Of a stretch of DNA of 64,000 nt, positions 42,193 through 64,000 are shown piece after piece. The notes beneath the pieces were generated by a model, which did no database searches, was not told the origin of the DNA, and saw nothing but the letters and a program-made list of their open reading frames with translations. The position numbers and the translations under genes are program-made. Source of the DNA: a virus. How positions within the stretch are numbered: the stretch's first letter is position 1; each line of letters starts with the position of its first letter. The stretch covers positions 32,001 to 96,000 of IMG/VR virus record IMGVR_UViG_3300047440_000809; one strand, 5' to 3'.

Positions 42193-44277
42193 ATGGGCGA
42201 CGGACCACTGCCGGGCTCCGAGGGTGGCTACGCGGGCCCTACCGTACCGGGTGGCGGTAGCGGGTCACAGGGGGCTCAGGGCACGCAAGGTGCCCAAGGC
42301 GCTCAGGGAAGCGGCGGACAAGGCGCTCAGGGCCCGCAAGGAGCTACCGGCGTCCAAGGGTCGCAGGGCGCGCAAGGATTCCAGGGCGGTGGGTTTCAAG
42401 GGGCGCAGGGCGCCACCGGCGTGCAGGGGTTCCAAGGTGCCCAGGGCTTCCAGGGCGGGGGCTTCCAAGGCGCGCAGGGCTCCACGGGCACGCAAGGTCC
42501 CGGTGGTGGCGCACAGGGCGCGCAGGGTGCGACCGGCACGCAAGGGTTCCAAGGCGCGCAGGGGTTCCAGGGTGGTGGTTTTCAGGGGGCGCAGGGCTTC
42601 CAGGGCGCTGACGGCACGCAGGGGTTCCAAGGCGCGACTGGTGCGGGTGCTCAGGGAGCGCAAGGCGCACAGGGAGCGGACGGCACTGCGGGTGCTCAGG
42701 GAGCACAAGGTGCAGCGGGTGTCGACGGTGCTCAAGGTGCCCAGGGCGCGACGGGAAACACCGGCGCCACCGGCGCGACGGGCGCGCAAGGATTCCAGGG
42801 TGCCACCGGAACGACCGGGACGCAGGGGTTCCAAGGCGCAACTGGGGTAACAGGCGCACAGGGTTCGCAGGGCGCGTCGGGCGCCGACGGTGCACAAGGA
42901 GCACAAGGTGCAACCGGTGTGACGGGAGCCCAGGGTGCACAAGGCTCGACGGGCGTGACCGGTGCGCAAGGAGCCCAAGGGGCTTCCGGTGTCGACGGAG
43001 CGCAGGGTGCACAAGGAGCCACCGGTGTGACCGGCGCTCAAGGAGCCACCGGCACCACTGGCGCTCAAGGAGCGCAAGGCGCTCAAGGCGCAACGGGAGT
43101 GACTGGAGCGCAGGGCGCACAGGGCGCGACCGGCACCGGCACGCAAGGCGCACAAGGTGGAACTGGAGCGCAAGGTGGCACGGGCGCTCAGGGCTTCCAG
43201 GGTGGTTCGGGTGGAGGTGGTGCGAGCACGCTGGGATTCTTCGCGCTCGGCAACACCACGCAGAACACCTCCACGACGCTCGCCGGCAGCGCCATTTCGT
43301 TCAACGTCGCCGGCGGCGTGTCGATGGGCTTCTCGAACTCGTCCATCCAGGTCTCGTCGCCACCTGTGTCGTCGCTGTCGGGCGTGAGCGGGATCGGCTT
43401 CACCACCAACGGCAGCACGATCTCCGTCGGCGGTCCACAGGTTACTGACTTCGAGCCGGAGCCACTGCTCGCCACGACGTCATGGGCGCCGGGCGCGGGG
43501 TCCTGGTACGTCGAGCCCTTCGCGGTACCGAACGCCTTCAGCGGACAGCTCATAAACGCTGTCGCGAGCTTCGCCAACGTGGGCTCTGCCGGGATCTTCG
43601 CACCGGTCGCGTCGTCTCGAATCAACTCGGGAAGCCGATCCGCGAGCTGCATCTTCAACATGTCCGCTGCGGTGTACTCGCGTGGTGCTGGAGGCAATAG
43701 CACCCGGATCGAATCGGTGTGGTCGAACTCATTCTCGTTCGGTGGGGCGTGCTCGCTGTCTGCGGCAACGGCCGGCGCCACCACCATCACGGTCACCTAC
43801 GCCGGCACGCTGTCCTACATCACCCAGATGAACTCGGGGGGCTACACGACCACGTCGTTCTCCGAGTCGGGGTCACGTACAAGCGCCGCCTCCACGATGT
43901 CCACATCGGCCGTCACCAGCGCGCTCACCGACATCTACAACCTGCTCTCGGGCCCGACGCTCGTGCCGATCCCGTTCAACACCACGCTCAACCCCGGCAA
44001 CTACTACTTCGCCTTTGCGTTCAACACCAGCTCGACGTCAGCAGGGACCGACGGGCAGGTTCTCGCCATGTCGGCATTCGTGGGCATCAGCGCCCCGAAT
44101 CAGTTTGCGACGAGAAACCTCGGAAAGTCTGTGAGCACATCGAACCAACCGATCTTCGCGGGAGCGGGCGTGTTCTCTGTGTCATCGGCGTCCCCACCCG
44201 TGTCCATGGCCTTTGTCGATTTGCGCTCGTACGCCGCCGCGAAGGTCTACTTCAACGTGCAGGCTTCTACGATTTGA
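42193..44277 (+). CDS. Collagen-like fibre/spike protein 1
   Basis: About 300 residues of Gly-X-Y ([12 protein letters not shown]), Ser/Thr-rich C-terminal head. Confidence 0.85.
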
Positions 44278-46595: not shown

Positions 46596-47918
46596 ATGGG
46601 TGATGGACCTCTGCCCGGCGCCGAAGGCGGTGGCTTCCTAGGACCCACCGCGGTGCCGAGCGGCGGCGCGCAGGGCACGCAGGGCCCACAGGGCGCGCAA
46701 GGTTCGAGCGGAGGCCCACAGGGGGCTCAGGGCAGGCAAGGCGCACAAGGGTCGCAGGGGGCGCAGGGCGCGCGTGGCGTCCAGGGGTCACAGGGGTCGA
46801 CGGGGGCCGGGACGCAAGGGGCTCAGGGCGACACCGGCGCGCAGGGGGCCCAGGGTGCCTCTGCCGGTAGCACGCTCGCGGCGCTCTACACGTTCGGGCT
46901 CGGCGACGTCCCCACCGTCGACAACCGGCTCGTGGGGGCCATCTCGAACATCTACTTCGACACCGACGGCCGCGTGGTCATCGAGACCAACACCGGCCAC
47001 GAGGGGAACACCGATCCATTCGTGCGGCTCATTCACGACGTCCTCGCCCAGGGCGAGCAGACCTTCAACAACCAGGAGATCCACTACCTCCCTGCCGCGG
47101 GGTTGAACGGGCTCGCGGCCACGACGCCGACGGGGTTCCGCACCGACTACGACCTCGTGGACTCGGGCGGCTCGACGTTCCACTTCGCGCACGAGCGCTA
47201 CGAGAGTGGCAACGTGGTCATGGGCAACCCGTTCACACCTGACCCGTTCCCCGTGCCATCAGGCGCGCCGTACATCGCGCACGAGGTCTACCTGCTTCAG
47301 CCCGACGGCTCGACGGAGACGCTGCACCAGTGGAATGCTCTCGGCACGTACACGCAGAACGCCTACGTGCCGAACGGCGGCGTGCCAGAGACGCTCGCTA
47401 CCATCATGACGCTCATGCACGCGAACGCGGGAGGCGGCGTGCTCCAGGTCGGCAGCGGCGTCGGATGGACCGTCAACTGGACGTCGGGGACGCTGCCCGT
47501 GCTCGGACGGCTGAACGTAATCCTCGACAACAACGGCTTCCTGACGGAGGAGGCCCATTGGCTCTTCCAGGCGCAGCGGTCCGGCGCTGGCGTCGTCGAC
47601 ATCGCACGGATGGACCCCAACCTGGGCATCGACAGCCTCCTCGGGTTGTTCACGTTCAGCAGTGACGGAACCGCCGCGAGCGCTGCCGCAGCCGGAGCCG
47701 CCAAGATGATCTACAACGACACGCGGAAGACGGCACAGCTCAGCGTCGACACCGGTGGCTATGTTGATCTCTTGACCGGATCTGCTGTCGCCAACGGCGG
47801 TGTGACAGTGACTTTCGGCGCCGCCACAGCGCCGGCAGGCAGCAGCGCAACGCCTACTCGGTGGCTCAGCGTGCCGGACGGCGCCGGTGGTACCTTCACA
47901 ATGGCCAGCTTCAGTTGA
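46596..47918 (+). CDS. Collagen-like fibre/spike protein 2
   Basis: N-terminus near-identical to 42193; short GAQ collagen; unrelated C-terminal domain. Confidence 0.8.
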   Translation: MGDGPLPGAEGGGFLGPTAVPSGGAQGTQGPQGAQGSSGGPQGAQGRQGAQGSQGAQGARGVQGSQGSTGAGTQGAQGDTGAQGAQGASAGSTLAALYTFGLGDVPTVDNRLVGAISNIYFDTDGRVVIETNTGHEGNTDPFVRLIHDVLAQGEQTFNNQEIHYLPAAGLNGLAATTPTGFRTDYDLVDSGGSTFHFAHERYESGNVVMGNPFTPDPFPVPSGAPYIAHEVYLLQPDGSTETLHQWNALGTYTQNAYVPNGGVPETLATIMTLMHANAGGGVLQVGSGVGWTVNWTSGTLPVLGRLNVILDNNGFLTEEAHWLFQAQRSGAGVVDIARMDPNLGIDSLLGLFTFSSDGTAASAAAAGAAKMIYNDTRKTAQLSVDTGGYVDLLTGSAVANGGVTVTFGAATAPAGSSATPTRWLSVPDGAGGTFTMASFS

Positions 47919-51996: not shown

Positions 51997-52361
51997 CAGC
52001 GCTTCGTGCCTGTAGAGAAGCCGCCGATAAAGGGGACGCCGCCGCTGACCATGGAGCCGACGTAAGACGTCATCGGGTTCGGATACATGCTTGCAGTCAC
52101 GGCAGAACCAGGGCTCTGTGTGGCAGGAGCCGACACGATCAGCGCATACGCGGCCTGCGCCGCCTTCGCCTCGTCAGAGCCGAGCAGGTGATGCCCACGC
52201 AGCCACATGGCGCCCTCGTCTTCGTGCTTCAGCAGCGAGCCACCGAAGTCGATCGTGGAGAAGCCTTGCCGGTTCACCGTCTCGACGACTTCGAGAACCA
52301 CGCTGTTCGGCAAGATCCGTGTGATCGGATCGTCGACGGTTACGCGCTTGGGCGCGCTCAC
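51996..52361 (-). CDS. EGxxWxRGW-family protein 16
   Basis: EDEGAMWLRGHH...EAKAAQAAYAL. Confidence 0.65.
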   Translation of the reverse strand: MSAPKRVTVDDPITRILPNSVVLEVVETVNRQGFSTIDFGGSLLKHEDEGAMWLRGHHLLGSDEAKAAQAAYALIVSAPATQSPGSAVTASMYPNPMTSYVGSMVSGGVPFIGGFSTGTKR

Positions 52362-53593
52362 AGCGTCACCGTCCGGGGCCCGCGGGCTACGTCCTGGCAG
52401 TCGACGATCGCCTGGGCGTGCTCGGCCAAGTACGCATAGTCGACATCGGTGTGGGCCGTCACGATGACCACGCAGTCGTACTCGGCCACGGCGTCGAACT
52501 CCACGCTTGTCATCCCCGCGAACTGGAACACGCGATGGTCGTAGTAGCGCACGTGTGCATGCTGCTTCCGTAGCAACTCCAGAATCGTCAGTGCCGGCGA
52601 CTCGCGCACGTCGTCGACGTCGGGCTTGTAGGCGACACCCATAAGCAGCACCTTGGAACCGTTCAGGGGCTTGCGTCGTGCATTCAAGACCTCCGCCACG
52701 CGCGACACCACGAACGCGGGCATCTCCCGATTGACCTCGTCGGCGAGCGCGATGAAGCGCGACGTGTAGTGGAGCGTCTTGAGCTTCCACGCCAGGTAGA
52801 GCGGGTCGACCGGGATGCAGTGGCCCCCGAGCCCTGGGCCCGGGTAGAAGGGCATGAACCCGTAGGGCTTGGTGGCGGCCGCACGGATGACCTCCCAGAC
52901 GTTGAGCCCGAGGCGATGGCACATGAGAGCCGTCTCGTTGACGAGCCCGATGTTCACGGCGCGGAACGTGTTCTCCAGGAGCTTGACCATCTCGGCCGCG
53001 TCGGTGGACGACATCGGCACCACGTAGTCGACGAATGTCGCGTAGAGCTTGATGGCCATCGTCATACTTGCCGGCGACGCTCCCCCGAGCACCTTGGGCG
53101 TGTTCCGCACGCCGTAGGTCTTGTTGCCTGGGTCGGTGCGCTCGGGCGAGAAGGCCACGAAGACGTCGCGGTCGAGAACGAACCCAGCGGCTTCGAGCTT
53201 GGGCACGAGCACCTCGCGCGTGAAGCCGGGGAAGGTGGTGCTCTCCAGGACAACGAGGCAGGGCGCGCGCATGTGGGCGACGACCGTGTCGAGCGCGGCG
53301 ATGATGTAGGAGTTGTCCGGGTCGCGCGTCTTGGACAGCGGCGTAGGCACGCAGATGATGATGGCGTCCGCGTCGGCGAGGATGGCCGGATCGGTGCTCG
53401 CTTGAACCATGCCGCTGCCGGCGCTCAAGTCGACGCCCGGGATGTACGAGCGTCCGTAGTTGATCTCGTCGACCTTATCCCGGTCCGTGTCGAGCACGAG
53501 CGTGGTGTGCCCTGCGTTTGCAATCTCGACGGCCAGCGGGAGCCCCACGTAGCCCGCACCGATGACCACGACCGTGGCGACGTCGTTGGTCAT
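52358..53593 (-). CDS. wbpA: UDP-N-acetylglucosamine 6-dehydrogenase (WbpA-like)
   Basis: IGAGYVGLPLA, CVPTPL, ESTTFPG, SPER.DPG, KLLENTFRAVNI, GGHCIPVDP, AYKPDVDDVRESP. Confidence 0.85.
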   Translation of the reverse strand: MTNDVATVVVIGAGYVGLPLAVEIANAGHTTLVLDTDRDKVDEINYGRSYIPGVDLSAGSGMVQASTDPAILADADAIIICVPTPLSKTRDPDNSYIIAALDTVVAHMRAPCLVVLESTTFPGFTREVLVPKLEAAGFVLDRDVFVAFSPERTDPGNKTYGVRNTPKVLGGASPASMTMAIKLYATFVDYVVPMSSTDAAEMVKLLENTFRAVNIGLVNETALMCHRLGLNVWEVIRAAATKPYGFMPFYPGPGLGGHCIPVDPLYLAWKLKTLHYTSRFIALADEVNREMPAFVVSRVAEVLNARRKPLNGSKVLLMGVAYKPDVDDVRESPALTILELLRKQHAHVRYYDHRVFQFAGMTSVEFDAVAEYDCVVIVTAHTDVDYAYLAEHAQAIVDCQDVARGPRTVTL

Positions 53594-53862
53594 CTGGTCA
53601 CGAGCGCTCGCGCGACCAGTAACGCCTGGACGGCTTCGGAGGCATCGTCGTGCCAGCCGCGCGTCCACGTGATGCCCTCGTCATCGACAAGGACGGTCTC
53701 GCTGTAGACGGCGCCGTTGTACCACCGGAAGATCGTGCCGGATCGAATCGGATTTCTCGTGGCCCACCCGTCTACGGTAGCCCGATGCACGTGCCCCGCG
53801 GCGCTCACGACGGTGACGTACGGCCAGTCCGTGCGCTCGTACGTCACCGCCGCGGTTGACAT
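53590..53862 (-). CDS. EGxxWxRGW-family protein 17
   Basis: DDEGITWTRGWHDDASEAVQALLVARAL. Confidence 0.75.
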   Translation of the reverse strand: MSTAAVTYERTDWPYVTVVSAAGHVHRATVDGWATRNPIRSGTIFRWYNGAVYSETVLVDDEGITWTRGWHDDASEAVQALLVARALVTR

Positions 53863-55326: not shown

Positions 55327-57626
55327 ATGAGCCAGAAAACGAAGCCGGTCAAGAGGGGCGGAAACGATACGGCCTCGGGCGGCCCACCCAGCGCCGACCA
55401 CGTCTACGGTATCAAGCGCGATCGGGGCCGCACAGGCTTCGGCAGCGGTCTTGTCCCGCCCGCTGCCGTCAAGCTCACCAAGGCCCAGCTCGACGAGCTG
55501 AAGCGCCTGGCGAACGGACCGCAGCACTCGTACGGGAAGGGACGCGTGCGCGTCCACAACAACCTGCGCCGCCACGGGCTCGCGATGATCGGGCACTCCG
55601 ACGGCTTCATGTGTTGGATCACGCAGGCGGGGCGGGACTTCCTCGCGAAGGCGGCGCGATGAGCTGCCCCGCGACGTTCATGACTCGGAAGGGCACGGCG
55701 CTTCGTTGTCAGTCCTCAGCGACTGGAGGTGCCGAGCACGCTCCCGCGCCTTACTTTCCACACGCCAGGCACTACGCCCACTCCGCCGAACACGCCGGCA
55801 CGGTCGCGTGGGACGGGCTGTGGGGCTATGAGGACCCCCAGCTCCACACGCACGTCGCGACGCTCTGCACGGCCGCGTGCACGCCAGAGAAGCACATCGG
55901 CGGTGCAACGGCACCGGGGCTAGACCCTCCGGCTGATCGTGCCCGCCAGCTCCTACGCGACACCATCGACGTCGAGGACAAGGCCGTGGTCGAGGGCGCC
56001 GCCATGCTCGCCGCCGGGCACGGCGTACGGTTCGTCTTCACGGTGCGGAACGGTGTGCACGTGGACGTGCGGGCGGAGCGCGTCGACTACGACGCGAAGG
56101 GAAGGATTCGATGAAGACCATCTACAAGTACGCAGCACCGATCGACGACGATCTGACCATCATGATGCCCGCAGCCGCCGAGGTGCTCTGCGTGCAGCTA
56201 CAAGGTGCCGGTCCGCAAATCTGGGCGCTGGTCGACCCGAGCGCGCCTCACGAGTTGCGGCGCTTTCACTGGCGTGGCACCGGGCATCCCGCCGATGGGC
56301 TCGGCCGCTACGTCGGCACGGTGCAGGGGGCAGGCGGCGCGCTCATCTTCCATCTGTTCGAGAGGAGAATCGGATGACCTCGCCCTCCAAATACTTTGCG
56401 CCGCAGGCGCCGGTGTCCGAAGACGAAGACGTCACCATCGAAGCACTCCAGCGCGCTGGCATCGTCAGCAGCGCCCCGACGCTTGCCAAGCCCGCTGGCA
56501 GCTCCCCCGCCCTGCGCATCGCCTGCCCGGTGTGCGCCGCGCCGCCCGGCGCCTACTGCATGAAGGGGCACGGCAAGATCCAGGTGATCGCCCACAAGCG
56601 TCGACGCGAGATGGAGGAGGCAACCCGTGGCACGTAAGGCCCCGAAGCTCCCCGTCTTCGGCGCAACAGCCAAGCCGGGGCTCGTCGTCATCGTCGGTGG
56701 CGCCGGCTACAACTTCGGCTGCGGGACCTGCGGACGGCGCTGGGATATGCCCTATGGTGGCTACGCCGTGGGCTTCGTGAAGGCGGCTGCGAATACGCAC
56801 ACCTGGCGATGCGCTCGGCTGACCCCGCAGGAGCGCCGCAAGCAGAACGCTCGGGATGAGCGTCGGTGGGCAAAGACGCCGCCCAAGAACGCAACGGTCT
56901 ACAACATGCCTGACCACCCGGGGCTACGCGAATGACGAAGCATCTCGACGTCGCCGGCACCACGTACAACGACATCGTCACCTGGCGCTGGGAGCGCTCG
57001 CGCATGCGCTGGGTGTCGACCCTGAGCGACGGCACTGAGCTGGTGGTTGCGCTCCAGCGCTTCGGCCGACGGTCGTTCTGGAACCCGTCGGTCAACGGCA
57101 AGGCGCTACCGAACAACGGGTTCCACGATCCCGAGGCGGCACAGCACGCCGCATTCGTAGCGTGGCAGACCCGCGTTCCGGTGAAGCTTGCCGACATCGC
57201 TTCCAAGATCCGCGCGCACCTCAAACGGTTCGAGGCCGACCCCAAGATCAACACCAAGCGCCGTGGCCTATCTCGCTACTACGGTGCAGGCGCACACGCC
57301 AGCGGCGCTCGTGTCGGCATGCGGTACATCGCGTTCCAGGGCGTTACCTACGTGTCCAAGGCCGACGCACTTCGATACCTGGCGTGGCTCGACGCAGGCA
57401 ACGTGGGTCGGCACTTCGAGGCGCTGCGCGAATGACCTCTCGCAGGCGTCCGAAGCTTCCCCACGGCTACTGCCCGCGCTGCTTTCGGTGGATCGCGCTC
57501 GTCGTTCCCGCAGGCGGTGACGGGTCAATCCTGGTCTTCCGCACGCACGTGGGGAAGGTCGCACCGCCGGTAACGCTTCCGAGGAGGTGTGACGGGTCGC
57601 GCATGGAAGGGACACCGACGCGATGA
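55327..57626 (+). CDS. Operon of seven small phage-type hypothetical proteins (55327, 55659, 56111, 56374, 56627, 56932, 57432)
   Basis: Successive overlapping starts/stops; several CxxC motifs. Confidence 0.55.
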
Positions 57627-57676
57627 GCTGGTTCAACTACAGCAAGCCCCAGAGGACGCAATGATGAAAGGACCAC

Positions 57677-58615
57677 ATGAAAGCTAAGAAGACCGATCGT
57701 ACTGCTGCACGCACACTGGACACGGCTGTCGAAGCTCTTGGGAACCAACCCTCGAAAGCGACTGTGCGCCGTGCGCTTGGAAAGCCCATAGACGGTCCGC
57801 CCACAGCGGGCCGTCCCGGTGCGGGGGGAAAGACACGTGAGCGCACCACGATCCAGATCGCGCTACCACGTTTTGGCGTCGTGCCGCTGTACGTAACAGG
57901 TCAGCTCGGCTCACCGTTGATCATGCATCGGTGGGGCAAGAAGGCGATCCGCGAGATGTTGGGAAAGCACATGGGGCACGACATCCCGCAGGCTGACAAG
58001 CAGCCGTTCGAGGACTTCGTGGACACGCTCTATCGTGAGCCGAAGACGGGCGAGATGGCTGTGCGCTCGGTCATGTTCAAGGCTGCGATGCTCGCCGCGC
58101 TTCGTGAAACGCCGGGCGTGACACGCGCTGATGCTATCACCGGCATTTCGATTCTCGGCGAGCTTTCTCCCATCTATGGGCAACCGACCAACCGATTGGA
58201 CCCAGTGAAGATCGGTCCGTGGGATGCACGGGTATCCGATCTCCGCTTCCGTGGCGAATACGCCGACTGGCTGGCCGTGCTCACGTTCCGTTACAACACG
58301 GCGGCGATTTCACTGACCGCGATTCACAACCTGCTGGCGACCGCAGGTGCACTCTATGGCGTCGGCGAGTGGCGCCCGACGCGCAACGGTGTGAACGGGC
58401 TTTTCTCTGTTGTTGAGAAGACCGAAGCCGAGAAGCTGATGAAGCGGCTCGGGCGCTGGAAGGTGGCTAATTTAACACCGGAAAATACCGGTACGATGGC
58501 GATTCTGGAAGAGTACGGTCTCGATGCCGCCACACTGGCCAAGCTCAAGACTGCCCCTCGATCCACAGTCGACCCCGCGAACGGGGGCGCAAACGGCACG
58601 AGCATTCACCCGTGA
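57677..58615 (+). CDS. Stand-alone RAMP/Cas7-like protein
   Basis: VTG..GSPLIMH first strand, FKAAM helix, DLRFRGEYADW.A.L, Gly-rich loop AG..YGVGEWRP.RNGVNGLF. Confidence 0.7.
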   Translation: MKAKKTDRTAARTLDTAVEALGNQPSKATVRRALGKPIDGPPTAGRPGAGGKTRERTTIQIALPRFGVVPLYVTGQLGSPLIMHRWGKKAIREMLGKHMGHDIPQADKQPFEDFVDTLYREPKTGEMAVRSVMFKAAMLAALRETPGVTRADAITGISILGELSPIYGQPTNRLDPVKIGPWDARVSDLRFRGEYADWLAVLTFRYNTAAISLTAIHNLLATAGALYGVGEWRPTRNGVNGLFSVVEKTEAEKLMKRLGRWKVANLTPENTGTMAILEEYGLDAATLAKLKTAPRSTVDPANGGANGTSIHP

Positions 58616-59112
58616 GGGGCACCGAGCTGCTGGTGGCAAAGAAGTACCGCTGGAAATCTGGGTTCCGGCTGCGCGGCAACCCTGCACTTGTCGGACAACG
58701 CATCGAGCAGATCACGCAGCGAAGAGGCCGCTGCACCCGGGAGGACATCTACACAGACGCGCGGCAACGCGCGTCGCCCTTCCGTGCAGATCTGTATTCG
58801 AAGACGACCGATGCCATGATTCGCGAATGGCGATTGGAAAAAGCGAGTGAGATCCTCCGCGCAATTCAAGTGGTGGAGATCGAAATGGTCGGAGGTGCCG
58901 AGACAGAAGTTGCAGCCCCACTTGTGTCGTTCATCCCTGAACGCGAGTACATGTTGACGACGCGCGTACTACACGACGTCGACCTGAGAAAGGAGCGGTT
59001 GGCGCAGATTGTTCGCGAGCTGGAGACATTTCGCTACAAGTTGCACGGCTTCAAGCTGCTCGTGGCGATGATCGATCGTGTGATTGCACGGGCGAAGAAG
59101 CTGAAGAAGTAG
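58612..59112 (+). CDS. Putative partner of the RAMP-like gene
   Basis: GTGA overlap; YRWK.G...VG..IEQI...AR..ASPF...WRLEKA..ILRAI.V...EL..FRYK. Confidence 0.7.
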   Translation: MRGTELLVAKKYRWKSGFRLRGNPALVGQRIEQITQRRGRCTREDIYTDARQRASPFRADLYSKTTDAMIREWRLEKASEILRAIQVVEIEMVGGAETEVAAPLVSFIPEREYMLTTRVLHDVDLRKERLAQIVRELETFRYKLHGFKLLVAMIDRVIARAKKLKK

Positions 59113-59118
59113 TTCTGT

Positions 59119-59401
59119 GGCAGGCAGGGATCGGCGTCCAAGGAACGGCATTGTGCTGTGCAGGTATAAAGCGGACCGGTTCGATTCGGCAGGCACGGCA
59201 GAATCCGGATCGATCGCATCGGGTGCAATCGGGAATGGAAGAGGTAGTTCACATGGAGCGGCAGGCAGGTTCCGGCACGGTCGTCACCTGTGTGCGTTCG
59301 TAGTAGGGAAGAGTGCGGGATGGAGCGGCAGGCTTGGCAGTGCAGTGTTCGTACATGGCGCGGATCGGTGGCTGATCAGGTACGGTCCGGTTTTGGCCGG
59401 A
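59119..59401 (+). ncRNA. Array of four 67-72 nt units made of GG-NNN pentamers; candidate guide-RNA array
   Basis: GGCAGGC at 59119, 59188, 59260, 59327 and GGCCGGA at 59395; 5-nt GG periodicity inside units. Confidence 0.65.
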
Positions 59402-59476
59402 TAAATCACGCGGGGCGTCCAGCGCGACATCTGGGCGCAACTTTCATCGAAGAGAACCGCAAATGAGACCCAACAG

Positions 59477-60196
59477 ATGACCGCCCTCCAACGCAAGCGC
59501 AAGAAGCGTGCGGTCCTCCAGACCGACGACCTGAAGCGCATCAGGCAAGCCGCCAAGGAGATCGGCCCGCGCGAGCACGCCCTCATCGAGTGGCTCTACA
59601 CGAACGGTGCCCGCGCCTCCGAGCCCGGTCTCGCCCGCCTCGATGACCTCGACCTCCACAACGGCACCGTGATGCTCACGCACCTCAAGGGCGGGCTCGC
59701 CGCGGAGCCGGTGCCGCTGTCGAAGACGTGCCTCGCGGCGCTCAAGAAGTGGCTGCCCCTCCACGCGAACGGCAAGTCGGCGGCCGCCATCCACTACGTG
59801 TTCCCCGGCGAGCGCCCCATCGCCTGCTACCCCTGCGGCGGCACGAAGGTCGTCGTCGAGAAGCGGCGCAAGGGCCCCGGCGGGCTGCCGCTCACCACGT
59901 CCGTCCCCTGTCCCCACTGCCACGCGACCGGGACCCGCTGGGGCATCACGCGGCACGAGGTTAGACGGATCATCTCGACCGTGTTCACGCACGCCGGCAT
60001 CCCCAAGGAGTTTCACTTCGCCCACGTGCTCCGGCACTCGGCCGTCACGCACATGCTCGACGACGGCGCGTCCCCCGCTGCCATCCAGGAGCGCGTGGGG
60101 CACAAGGCACTAGCCACGACGTTCGGGTACGTGCACACGACCAAGAAGGCGCGCGCGATGGTGTCCAAGACGTTCGACGAGGAGGACGAGACGTGA
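59477..60196 (+). CDS. Tyrosine recombinase/integrase with Zn-ribbon insertion
   Basis: GARASE (R), HVLRH, VGH, TTFGY; CYPC...CPHC insert. Confidence 0.9.
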   Translation: MTALQRKRKKRAVLQTDDLKRIRQAAKEIGPREHALIEWLYTNGARASEPGLARLDDLDLHNGTVMLTHLKGGLAAEPVPLSKTCLAALKKWLPLHANGKSAAAIHYVFPGERPIACYPCGGTKVVVEKRRKGPGGLPLTTSVPCPHCHATGTRWGITRHEVRRIISTVFTHAGIPKEFHFAHVLRHSAVTHMLDDGASPAAIQERVGHKALATTFGYVHTTKKARAMVSKTFDEEDET

Positions 60197-60413
60197 CGAC
60201 CGAGACTGCGACTGTTCCCTGCGAGACCTGCGGCACGCCGACACCGATGCTCGGCACCAAGCGCTGCACCAACTGCTGGGAGGTCGAGAAGCGCCTGCTC
60301 GAATACCTACGCAGCATCAATGGACGCAAGTTCGTACGCAAGTGCTACGCGCGGCGCCGGGTAGCACCGGGCGTGCGGGCAAACATCGACAACCCGGAAG
60401 AGGGAGACTGAAC

Positions 60414-62470: not shown

Positions 62471-62884
62471 ATGAGCAAGCGCGAGGCGGTTCTGTGTGAC
62501 AAGGCGACGGCGGGGTCTGAGCGGTTCGTCGGGGACGGCAAGCCGAACGTCAAAACACCGGGGAAGAAGTGCCCGAACATGGCCATCGGGCAGTGCCCGA
62601 TCTGTGACGACGACATCTGTGTGGCGCACGCGCTGCACCCGAAGGGCGGACTGGCGATCACGCTGAAGCTCACCGGGGTCAACACGAGCACGAACCCACC
62701 GCTGGACAAGACCATGGCGGATAATCACTGCGCGCTGCCCGTCTGCTTCGAATGTGGTGTGAAGATCAGCGGCTATACCTACTTCGAAGATGCCGCCCGC
62801 GACGTCATCGAGATGACTGCGACGAACCTTCGAGCCGCACTGGCGGCTCGGGCGCTCAAGCTGGCAGAGTCGGAGAAGCCGTAA
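62471..62884 (+). CDS. Zn-binding (B-box-like) protein
   Basis: C..C..CPIC...IC..H...CFEC; ends LRAALAARAL. Confidence 0.55.
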   Translation: MSKREAVLCDKATAGSERFVGDGKPNVKTPGKKCPNMAIGQCPICDDDICVAHALHPKGGLAITLKLTGVNTSTNPPLDKTMADNHCALPVCFECGVKISGYTYFEDAARDVIEMTATNLRAALAARALKLAESEKP

Positions 62885-63512
62885 TCCGCGCGTACGCCTG
62901 AAGCGCCGCGAGGTCACCCTGGAAGTAGTCCGCGTCGCACTCGCCCACGCCGGGGCACGCGTACTCGGGGCCCGTCTCGCCGCCGTCGGTCCACTGCCAG
63001 ATCGACCACGTGTCCCACGGTGCCGGCACCACGGGCTCGGCGCCCGAGGCGTTGTACCGCGGCAGCCACAGGTCGGGCTTCACCACGTCGGCTGGCCACG
63101 CCGGAGACCCGATCTGCTTCCACACTCGGTTTGACCAGTATAGGATCGGCTTCCGGTCCTTGTACGTCTGGGCGATCTCGTGCATCCACATCGCGATCCA
63201 GTCGATGTTGGGCGGCGTCTTCCCCTCGACGTCGAGCGCGAGCCGCTCGTTGTTGCGCAGAGGCCCCACGGCGTCGAGGAGGCGTTCTGCCTGGTGGGTG
63301 GGATCGCCCTCGGTCGCGTAGTGGAAGTAGATGCCCAGCTCGAATGGCTGCTGCCGGAAGCCGTCCCGGTGGGAGCGCAGCGTGGGGTCAACGCTCAGGT
63401 TGCCCTGCGTGGCCTTGATCCCCATGAAGGTGACGCCGGCGTCTTGGATGAGCCCCCAGTCCCTGACCGGGTGGAAGTGGTTGACGTCTATGCCGCGAGC
63501 ACGATCAGCCAT
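62856..63512 (-). CDS. GH25 muramidase (endolysin)
   Basis: GIDVNH, KATQG, LDVE, LWLPRY, IWQWT, CDADYF. Confidence 0.85.
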   Translation of the reverse strand: MADRARGIDVNHFHPVRDWGLIQDAGVTFMGIKATQGNLSVDPTLRSHRDGFRQQPFELGIYFHYATEGDPTHQAERLLDAVGPLRNNERLALDVEGKTPPNIDWIAMWMHEIAQTYKDRKPILYWSNRVWKQIGSPAWPADVVKPDLWLPRYNASGAEPVVPAPWDTWSIWQWTDGGETGPEYACPGVGECDADYFQGDLAALQAYARITASPTLPA

Positions 63513-63596
63513 GACGAAAGTCTCCGGCCGGACGGGGTGTGGCGTCAAATCCACAGGTGGGGTGTGATAACTTGTTGGCACCTGGGGGTGGCGTGG

Positions 63597-63644
63597 TGAT
63601 ATAGCCACATGGTGTCCTGATATCAGCATGGCATGGGGGGTGCA
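63597..63644 (+). promoter_or_regulatory. TGATAT(A/C)R boxes + sigma54 promoter
   Basis: TGATATAG 63597, TGATATCA 63618, TGGCATGGGGGGTGCA 63629-63644. Confidence 0.6.
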
Positions 63645-63670
63645 TTCTCTAGAGAGCAAGGAGACGCGCC

Positions 63671-64000
63671 ATGACAAAGACCACCAAGCGAACCGACATT
63701 CACCGCCCCGGGGCCATCATCCCCGCCGACTACTCGTGCTGGGGGTTCTTCGACTTCGGCGGCGCCAACGAGCCGCCGTGGGGCACCGAGATCCTGTCCT
63801 CGCCTGCCGTCCACGCGGCCGGCTACGCGCGCAGCGGTGACGACATCAAGGGCAACTGCCACGTCTGCGGCGCGCGCTTCCGCTTCGGTGCGCTCTTCCA
63901 GCACACCCCGACCGGCAAGTTCATCATCTTCGGCCACGACTGCGCGAGCAAGTACGAGATGCTCGCCGACTTCGCGGCCGCCGAGGAGACTCGGGAGATG
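63671..64000 (+). CDS. Hypothetical protein, truncated by window end
   Basis: AAGGAG RBS; MTKTTKRTDIHRPGAIIPADY... Confidence 0.6.
   Translation, partial: MTKTTKRTDIHRPGAIIPADYSCWGFFDFGGANEPPWGTEILSSPAVHAAGYARSGDDIKGNCHVCGARFRFGALFQHTPTGKFIIFGHDCASKYEMLADFAAAEETREM

Follow-up and report, generated by a model that had tools for sequence, protein, structure and literature searches.

The DNA analysed here, a window of 64,000 nucleotides (nt) that comprises bases 32001–96000 of the IMG/VR virus record IMGVR_UViG_3300047440_000809 (104,563 nt, estimated to be 86% complete), comes from a virus with a genome of ~105 kb and 66% GC and contains a locus in which a gene for a 312-aa protein (vipr) is followed by a small accessory gene and by an array of GG-led pentamers (59119–59401). 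The locus belongs to the already published VIPR (Viral Interference Programmable Repeat) systems and is not a new kind of system; its 312-aa protein is a RAMP of the Vipr family, homologous to a characterised Vipr. The array appears to be of the staggered type but diverged, and at least part of it, the first of its four units (U1) before any other, is probably still usable as a guide; we assign this reading a probability of about 60%.

VIPR is a very recently described form of RNA-guided DNA silencing that uses a gapped code; the RAMP proteins of CRISPR have been proposed to descend from it. It combines the phage RAMP protein Vipr with a vap gene and with vrRNAs composed of GGY/NN pentamers (10.64898/2026.04.26.720920, 10.64898/2026.04.26.720927). 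Through pairing that passes over every third base, the vrRNAs recognise double-stranded DNA and silence its transcription (10.64898/2026.04.26.720920, 10.64898/2026.04.26.720927), and the family is defined chiefly by the phylogeny of Vipr (10.64898/2026.04.26.720920). A third VIPR preprint from 2026 describes solo vrRNAs that are used in trans. The sequence-only reading of this DNA, made without database searches, had noted a resemblance to VIPR. That comparison was sound, as the preprints exist and the protein is indeed a homologue of Vipr. The same reading took each repeat to be a GG-NNN unit with three variable bases, which disagrees with the published code, in which reading is confined to the two bases that follow GGY and one nucleotide of the target is skipped.

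A search with the single sequence of the 312-aa protein gave a weak match (E 0.18) to PDB entry 36pp, "SUSP1 Vipr protein". A profile built from 13 homologues matched 36pp_D, the same SUSP1 Vipr protein, with an E-value of 2.5e-8, and comparison with the Vipr of phage SUSP2 by hhalign gave a probability of 96.3% (E 1.6e-9). One bridging relative matches homologues from actinophages as well as those from SUSP/Felix-like phages. The family is represented by 1857 clusters (50% identity) at E ≤ 1e-3; the window protein matches phrog_4652, a group of unknown function, and finds nothing in Pfam, including the RAMP model. Its RAMP/Cas7-like character, originally proposed from the motif SPLIMH (which contains H84) and the G-loop GVGEWRP..NG.NG.F, was borne out by its AlphaFold2 (AF2) model, which has a predicted local distance difference test (pLDDT) score of 73. 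In a Foldseek search the top matches of this model were all Csm3/Cas7 proteins (E 1e-5), and VIA-align likewise ranked Csm3/Cas7 first (Z 10.3, root-mean-square deviation 3.6 over 153 residues for the span 64–249); the top matches aligned over 153–158 residues. The core of the protein (residues ~62–250) is preceded by a basic N-terminal extension modelled with low confidence (1–60) and followed by a helical C-terminal extension (250–295). Both extensions are common to the members of a small subclade of long-form Vipr proteins that includes the window protein, and the N-terminal one is specific to this clade. Because residues 20–60 are conserved in relatives, the long version of the reading frame is supported as the correct one. 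The thumb can be placed provisionally by aligning R192 with R138 of the SUSP protein.

In a joint alignment that included SUSP2 Vipr, ten columns were invariant (P80, H84, R192, W198, G224, G228, G230, W232, R233 and G241). Four of these residues, H84, R192, W232 and R233, align with H17, R138, W178 and R179 of SUSP1 Vipr, and E231 aligns with D177, a conservative replacement of D by E. In the structure of the SUSP1 protein determined by cryo-electron microscopy, H17, R138, D177 and W178 hold G1 and G2 of each repeat, with R179 nearby (10.64898/2026.04.26.720927). The GG-binding residues are conserved in the window Vipr. The pocket for the third base differs. In SUSP1 it contains C173, and purines are sterically excluded from it (10.64898/2026.04.26.720927). 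At the equivalent position, relatives whose GGY arrays are clean have V or I and the window protein has Tyr227, and Tyr is also present in relatives that are 62–85% identical to the latter.

As had been proposed, the 166-aa partner is translationally coupled to vipr: the two open reading frames (ORFs) overlap in GTGA, which the vipr stop codon TGA (58613–58615) shares with the GTG start of the partner at 58612. The two genes make up a putative minimal operon, as in VIPR. In 24 of 81 related loci, a tblastn search places a homologue of the partner immediately between vipr and the array, and close homologues of the partner (71–85% identity) are found on contigs equally long as those that carry close homologues of vipr. 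The protein matches phrog_15946. Pfam searches with the partner and with its 21-member alignment returned nothing, nor did sequence and profile searches of the PDB. Its model (pLDDT 83) had no Foldseek match below E 0.29, the top rows being helix-turn-helix proteins of the HigA/SinR type (probability 0.2); a wide VIA-align search reached at best Z 6, on a C-terminal helical hairpin, and the Atlas comparison returned viral hypothetical clusters only. Homology with the vap1 of SUSP phages was considered and ruled out, as the profile of the partner, compared by hhalign with SUSP2 vap1, gave a probability of 0.07%. Six families of vap genes have been described in VIPR systems, mostly with products predicted to interact with DNA (10.64898/2026.04.26.720920); the partner is treated here as the product of a putative vap.

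Relatives of the window Vipr provide the standard against which its array can be judged. A scan of IMG/VR gave 477 matches, and 80 loci (81 in some counts) were examined, all of them encoding proteins no more than 43% identical to the window Vipr. The expectation that homologues would have 5-nt arrays next to them was confirmed by two methods. In-phase runs of 7–24 GG pentamers were found in about 70 of the 80 loci, nearly all of them on the strand of the gene and a few hundred bases downstream. An nhmmer profile of units from the relatives (30 units, each 54 nt long) located arrays in 70 of the 81 loci, with 253 matches on the plus strand and one on the minus strand. These arrays read GGYNN, with 9–12 pentamers per unit and a 4-nt GGCA step between units that is seen as the delimiter GGCAGGC; the spacing of delimiters is 4+5n in 126 of 180 cases. 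Closer relatives were sought at the DNA level. None appeared in a scan of genome contigs, blastn against phages gave no match, and two scans of metagenome contigs yielded a single distant locus of 1.2 kb.

Two of the related loci come from cultured actinobacteriophages. In Gordonia phage UmaThurman (NC_031249.1), a clean staggered GGYNN array (L087:3063-3370) adjoins the vipr homologue with no accessory gene between them and lies under gp40, annotated as a hypothetical protein, which looks like a mis-annotation of the array. Mycobacterium phage Saal (NC_023580.1) has a clean staggered GGYNN array (L086:2098-2341) next to its vipr homologue, upstream of gp51 and running into the annotated start of that gene, in the immunity/excise region. 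Arrays of this kind, unannotated or annotated as genes, offer tractable model systems.

The array in the window shows the features of the family in a weakened form. The sequence-only reading had reported a periodic array beginning 6 nt past the stop codon of the partner, and this is what is found: its TAG extends to 59112, and the first GGCAGGC opens at 59119. The autocorrelation of GG peaks at lags 5, 10 and 15, and the observed lag-5 ratio was reached by none of 2000 dinucleotide shuffles. An indel-tolerant parse into pentamers scored 53, as against 28.9 ± 3.9 in shuffles (z 6.2), and this was the maximum of the window. CC is nearly absent from the plus strand of the array. The delimiter GGCAGGC occurs at 59119, 59188, 59260 and 59327, that is, four times in ~210 nt, and 11 times elsewhere on the plus strand. 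It divides the array into four units (Table 1), among which U1 is the best-preserved candidate vrRNA; 6 of its 13 pentamers start with GG and 11 of 13 with G. Since U3 and U4 together align colinearly with U1 and U2, an old duplication of a block of ~139 nt is suggested. Alignment of the four units to one another revealed little beyond the GGs and the delimiters. For a 95-aa ORF that spans the array, a search of 5.8 billion proteins gave no homologue, and searches of the region against Rfam and for tRNAs gave no match. No further array was found in the 104.6-kb record; GG-rich stretches at 19.5 kb and 22.6 kb were considered as arrays and rejected as coding sequence for Gly-rich proteins.

Table 1. 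Genes and candidate array units at the locus, with positions in the window.
Feature	Position	Strand	Details
vipr	57677–58615	+	312 aa; ATG start; AAAGGA upstream
vap-like accessory gene	58612–59112	+	166 aa; GTG start
U1	59119–59187	+	GGCA + 13 pentamers, strict register; spacing 69 = 4 + 5 × 13
U2	59188–59259	+	72 nt; 10 in-phase pentamers, register slip, tail-like motif (59238–59259) at end
U3	59260–59326	+	67 nt; GG pentamers at both ends, GG-free interior, out of register
U4	59327–59401	+	last unit; ends in hairpin TCCGG-N6-CCGGA without T-run
Tyrosine integrase	59477–60196		239 aa; Phage_integrase, E 1e-24; directly downstream of array

A short motif, GAAGARGTAGTTC, is present at 59103–59115 and 59238–59250, with a looser copy at 59305–59318, and precedes three of the four delimiters; the partner ORF ends within its first copy. 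The motif might serve in processing or as a tail element, or might be no more than a vestige of the block duplication. The tail-like motif is 13–22 nt long, and the folding of the whole region does not stand out from that of shuffled sequences (z 0.11).

By homology with the SUSP1 system, a working array would be expected to operate as follows. The vipr gene, the vap-like gene and the array would be transcribed together, and the transcript would be processed into RNAs of ~70 nt by cleavage at the GGCAGGC delimiters or close to them. Vipr protomers would polymerise along each RNA, one per pentamer, sequestering the GG and the next base and presenting the last two for pairing. Pairing would be with double-stranded DNA, every third base being skipped, and transcription of the bound DNA would be silenced. 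A competing phage, satellite or prophage would be the likely target.

Several results weigh against a working array. Of 56 parsed units, 30 (54%) start with GG, and ten are not 5 nt long. The delimiter spacings are 69, 72 and 67, so that two of the three are out of register and U1 alone is in register. The window array contains no in-phase run of five or more GG pentamers. Four tandem NNNGG units never occur in it; the maximum is three NNNGG units, with a single run of three YNNGG units. The unit profile of the relatives, when run with nhmmer on the window genome, gave as its best match a 17-nt segment at 59327–59343 with an E-value of 9.9. A consensus scan of 57000–60300 for sigma-70 promoters and terminators found none. 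Exact gapped patterns derived from U1 and U2 had no matches in IMG/VR, a test that is insensitive, because a clean guide from the related locus L060, used as a positive control, also matched nothing. Tandem Repeats Finder did not report the array either. The published search for vrRNAs required at least four tandem YNNGG units (10.64898/2026.04.26.720920), a number that the window array does not reach. As this is a search threshold and degenerate loci are admitted to the family, the shortfall lowers confidence in the array and not in the locus; frequent internal degeneracy and the repeat variants NNNGG, YNNNG and NNNNG are on record (10.64898/2026.04.26.720920). Moreover, in-register units with terminators at their ends are found in three of the relatives (L012, L033 and L040); GG starts 45–60% and G ~90% of their pentamers, and U1 resembles these units in its half-GG, G-first pattern.

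Further target searches were made with the guides of the window and of its relatives. When the own genome of the virus was searched with the window guides at skips of 0, 1 and 2, no match exceeded the shuffled-guide controls; no self-targeting was found in the published VIPR systems (10.64898/2026.04.26.720920). A search with 180 guides from the relatives against 0.8 Mb, an insensitive test on a small database, showed no enrichment for the 1-nt skip. The best match of these 180 guides was between the L052:1539-1598 guide and a candidate target at L058:6691-6726, which is not statistically secure. In this screen the value of 0.9 was reached by no shuffled control; one real guide also reached it under skip 2.

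The irregularity of the array may instead reflect decay. Under this explanation vipr and vap are intact while the array is a decaying remnant of a formerly clean staggered array, without working guides, so that the proteins are idle or depend in trans on the vrRNAs of another element, in the manner of the solo vrRNAs of the third VIPR preprint. About 70 of 81 relatives pass the regular-expression, in-phase and profile tests, all of which the window array fails, and U2 and U3 are out of register. The low GC content at third codon positions (GC3) of the cassette, described below, suggests an imported module, which may not be maintained. On the other hand, the GG periodicity is still strong and strand-specific, the four delimiters remain evenly spaced, and U1 is in register with the G-first pattern of the terminator-ended arrays of relatives. 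All family-invariant residues are retained in both Vipr and the partner, and the 104.6-kb record holds no alternative array. On balance we consider decay of the whole array possible but unlikely.

The irregularity may also be native to the system. In this case the subclade with Tyr227, extensions of about 60 aa at either end and a partner other than vap1 would use an irregular but fully functional array, in which a leading G suffices, a purine is accepted at position 3, slips of register are tolerated, about half of the units carry GG, and a tail-like motif stands between units. Since a relaxed code of this kind would be a special case of a working array, our estimates for the different readings overlap. 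The pocket residue seems to vary with the third base, being Cys (C173) in SUSP1, V or I where relatives have clean arrays, Asn in the locus L064 and Tyr in the window. The relaxation of the third base that the sequence-only reading had noticed is real, A occupying position 3 in 28% of the GG units of the window (GGA) compared with 8% in the relatives, and the G-first count of U1 (11/13) fits a rule in which G alone suffices. As for the suggestion that this might be a new variant, it holds only in part, because NNNGG, NNNNG and similar variants and degeneracy have already been published. The link between pocket and third base is suggestive, with too few cases behind it: the correlation involves just two atypical pockets, and L052 has Val in the pocket yet 17% GGA, which weakens it. 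A natively relaxed code is, in our estimate, a rather doubtful proposition.

The relative L064 is a second case in which a changed pocket goes with a relaxed third base. It carries long in-phase arrays (L064:6265-7345), in which 96 of 110 pentamers start with GG, with 31% GGA, and its Vipr has the G-loop AGFTNGLGEWRQ, with Asn in the position-3 pocket.

A third account, by which the 364-nt gap between partner and integrase would be an integrase attachment or regulatory region (attP arms, sites for excisionase or integrase) with the repeats as protein-binding sites, can draw on the tyrosine integrase that begins at 59477 and on the short direct repeats in the region, but is very improbable, given that the GG beat, the scarcity of CC and the GGCAGGC delimiters match the arrays that follow vipr and vap in relatives, that the arrays of relatives are followed by other genes (a methylase/ParB-like ORF in L058) or by nothing annotated, that the array abuts the stop codon of the partner and not int, and that ~75 nt (59402–59476) between array and integrase are still free for int-proximal sites. 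An attP site commonly adjoins int.

With a diverged but partly usable staggered array as the preferred reading, the locus can be compared with the known systems. Among the closest is VIPR type II (of the types I–VII), found in the Escherichia phages SUSP1 and SUSP2 and in a Pseudomonas fulva prophage, where vipr is likewise followed by a small accessory gene and an array; the intergenic array of SUSP2, ~360 nt, also comes after the accessory gene. The SUSP1 and SUSP2 loci share with the window a homologous Vipr core with the same GG-contact residues, a periodicity of pentamers led by GG, and location in a viral genome without cas genes, for which the record of the window was searched with Cas1 and the Pfam RAMP model. 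Nevertheless, the locus is not of type II, because its partner differs, being unrelated to type II vap1, and its arrays are staggered. In addition, Vipr with its N- and C-terminal extensions is 312 aa long here and 195–202 aa in type II, and its position-3 pocket has Tyr in place of the Cys of SUSP1. The units of the window are delimited by GGCAGGC, whereas type II has a repeat tract with an invariant structured 3' tail (a pseudoknot); at the window locus there is only a short recurring tail-like motif. Unlike type II, the window has no upstream vrRNA, its GGY rule is relaxed and its register is irregular.

Also close are the VIPRs with staggered arrays (fig. S18 of 10.64898/2026.04.26.720920) and the ~70 IMG/VR, mycobacteriophage and Gordonia phage loci described above, whose Vipr proteins are 33–43% identical to that of the window. 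They share with it arrays on the strand of the genes and GGCA|GGC delimiters with a phase step of 1 nt, and the 24 loci mentioned above have the homologous accessory gene. These relatives keep their register (4+5n in 70% of spacings), with 9–11 pentamers per unit, 71–100% GG and Y at position 3, as compared with units of 13 pentamers, 54% GG, 28% GGA and two of three spacings off in the window.

Cas7/Csm3 proteins of CRISPR-Cas types III-A, VII, III-E and I-C share with the window Vipr the RRM (RNA recognition motif) core, the glycine-rich loop and the thumb hairpin (Z 8–10 over ~150 residues). Cas7 is established to polymerise along guide RNA in constant steps, and the same has been shown for SUSP1 Vipr, but the step of Vipr is 5 nt with three bases flipped, as opposed to 6 nt with one base flipped in Cas7, and the guide is encoded in the genome in VIPR and not acquired. 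The statement that the system is not CRISPR stands as far as it was covered: searches of the 104.6-kb record for Cas1 and with the Pfam RAMP model were negative, other cas families not being searched one by one, and a repeat search of the record found no CRISPR-like repeat. On these tests the locus is not a class 1 CRISPR-Cas system.

Each divergent member of VIPR helps to define how flexible its code is. The present locus, from a GC-rich virus of ~105 kb that is uncultured, contributes a Vipr of the long form together with a different accessory protein and an array that retains the delimiters and the 5-nt beat of the family while breaking the GGY rule and the register. If this array works, recognition of the constant bases can loosen, perhaps by way of Tyr227, which would bear on the design of guides and on the computational detection of arrays; if the code is relaxed throughout the subclade, the published GGY/NN code and targeting rules would be widened. 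If the array does not work, it would provide an example of array decay.

The cassette formed by vipr, the vap-like gene and the array (57677–59476) has a GC content of 0.58–0.61 and a GC3 of 0.69–0.71, and the flanking genes have a GC3 of 0.83–0.94. Because the GC3 of the cassette is below that of its flanks, acquisition of this segment, which adjoins the integrase, as a module by horizontal transfer is suggested. The integrase itself has a Cys-rich insertion at residues ~111–160, with weak matches to zinc-ribbon and DnaJ CXXCXGXG sequences (E 1.5e-4, below the cut-off). Elsewhere in the window, the minus strand carries a gene for a UDP-glucose/GDP-mannose dehydrogenase (52358–53668), which matches phrog_9148 and three Pfam domains at E 1e-34 to 1e-18, and one for a GH25 endolysin (62856–63677). 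Tandem Repeats Finder detected periodic repeats of the GGC/CAA type, with periods of 9 to 72 nt, at 42331–43133 and 46657–46796; these are probably collagen-like Gly-X-Y coding repeats, perhaps of fibre genes.

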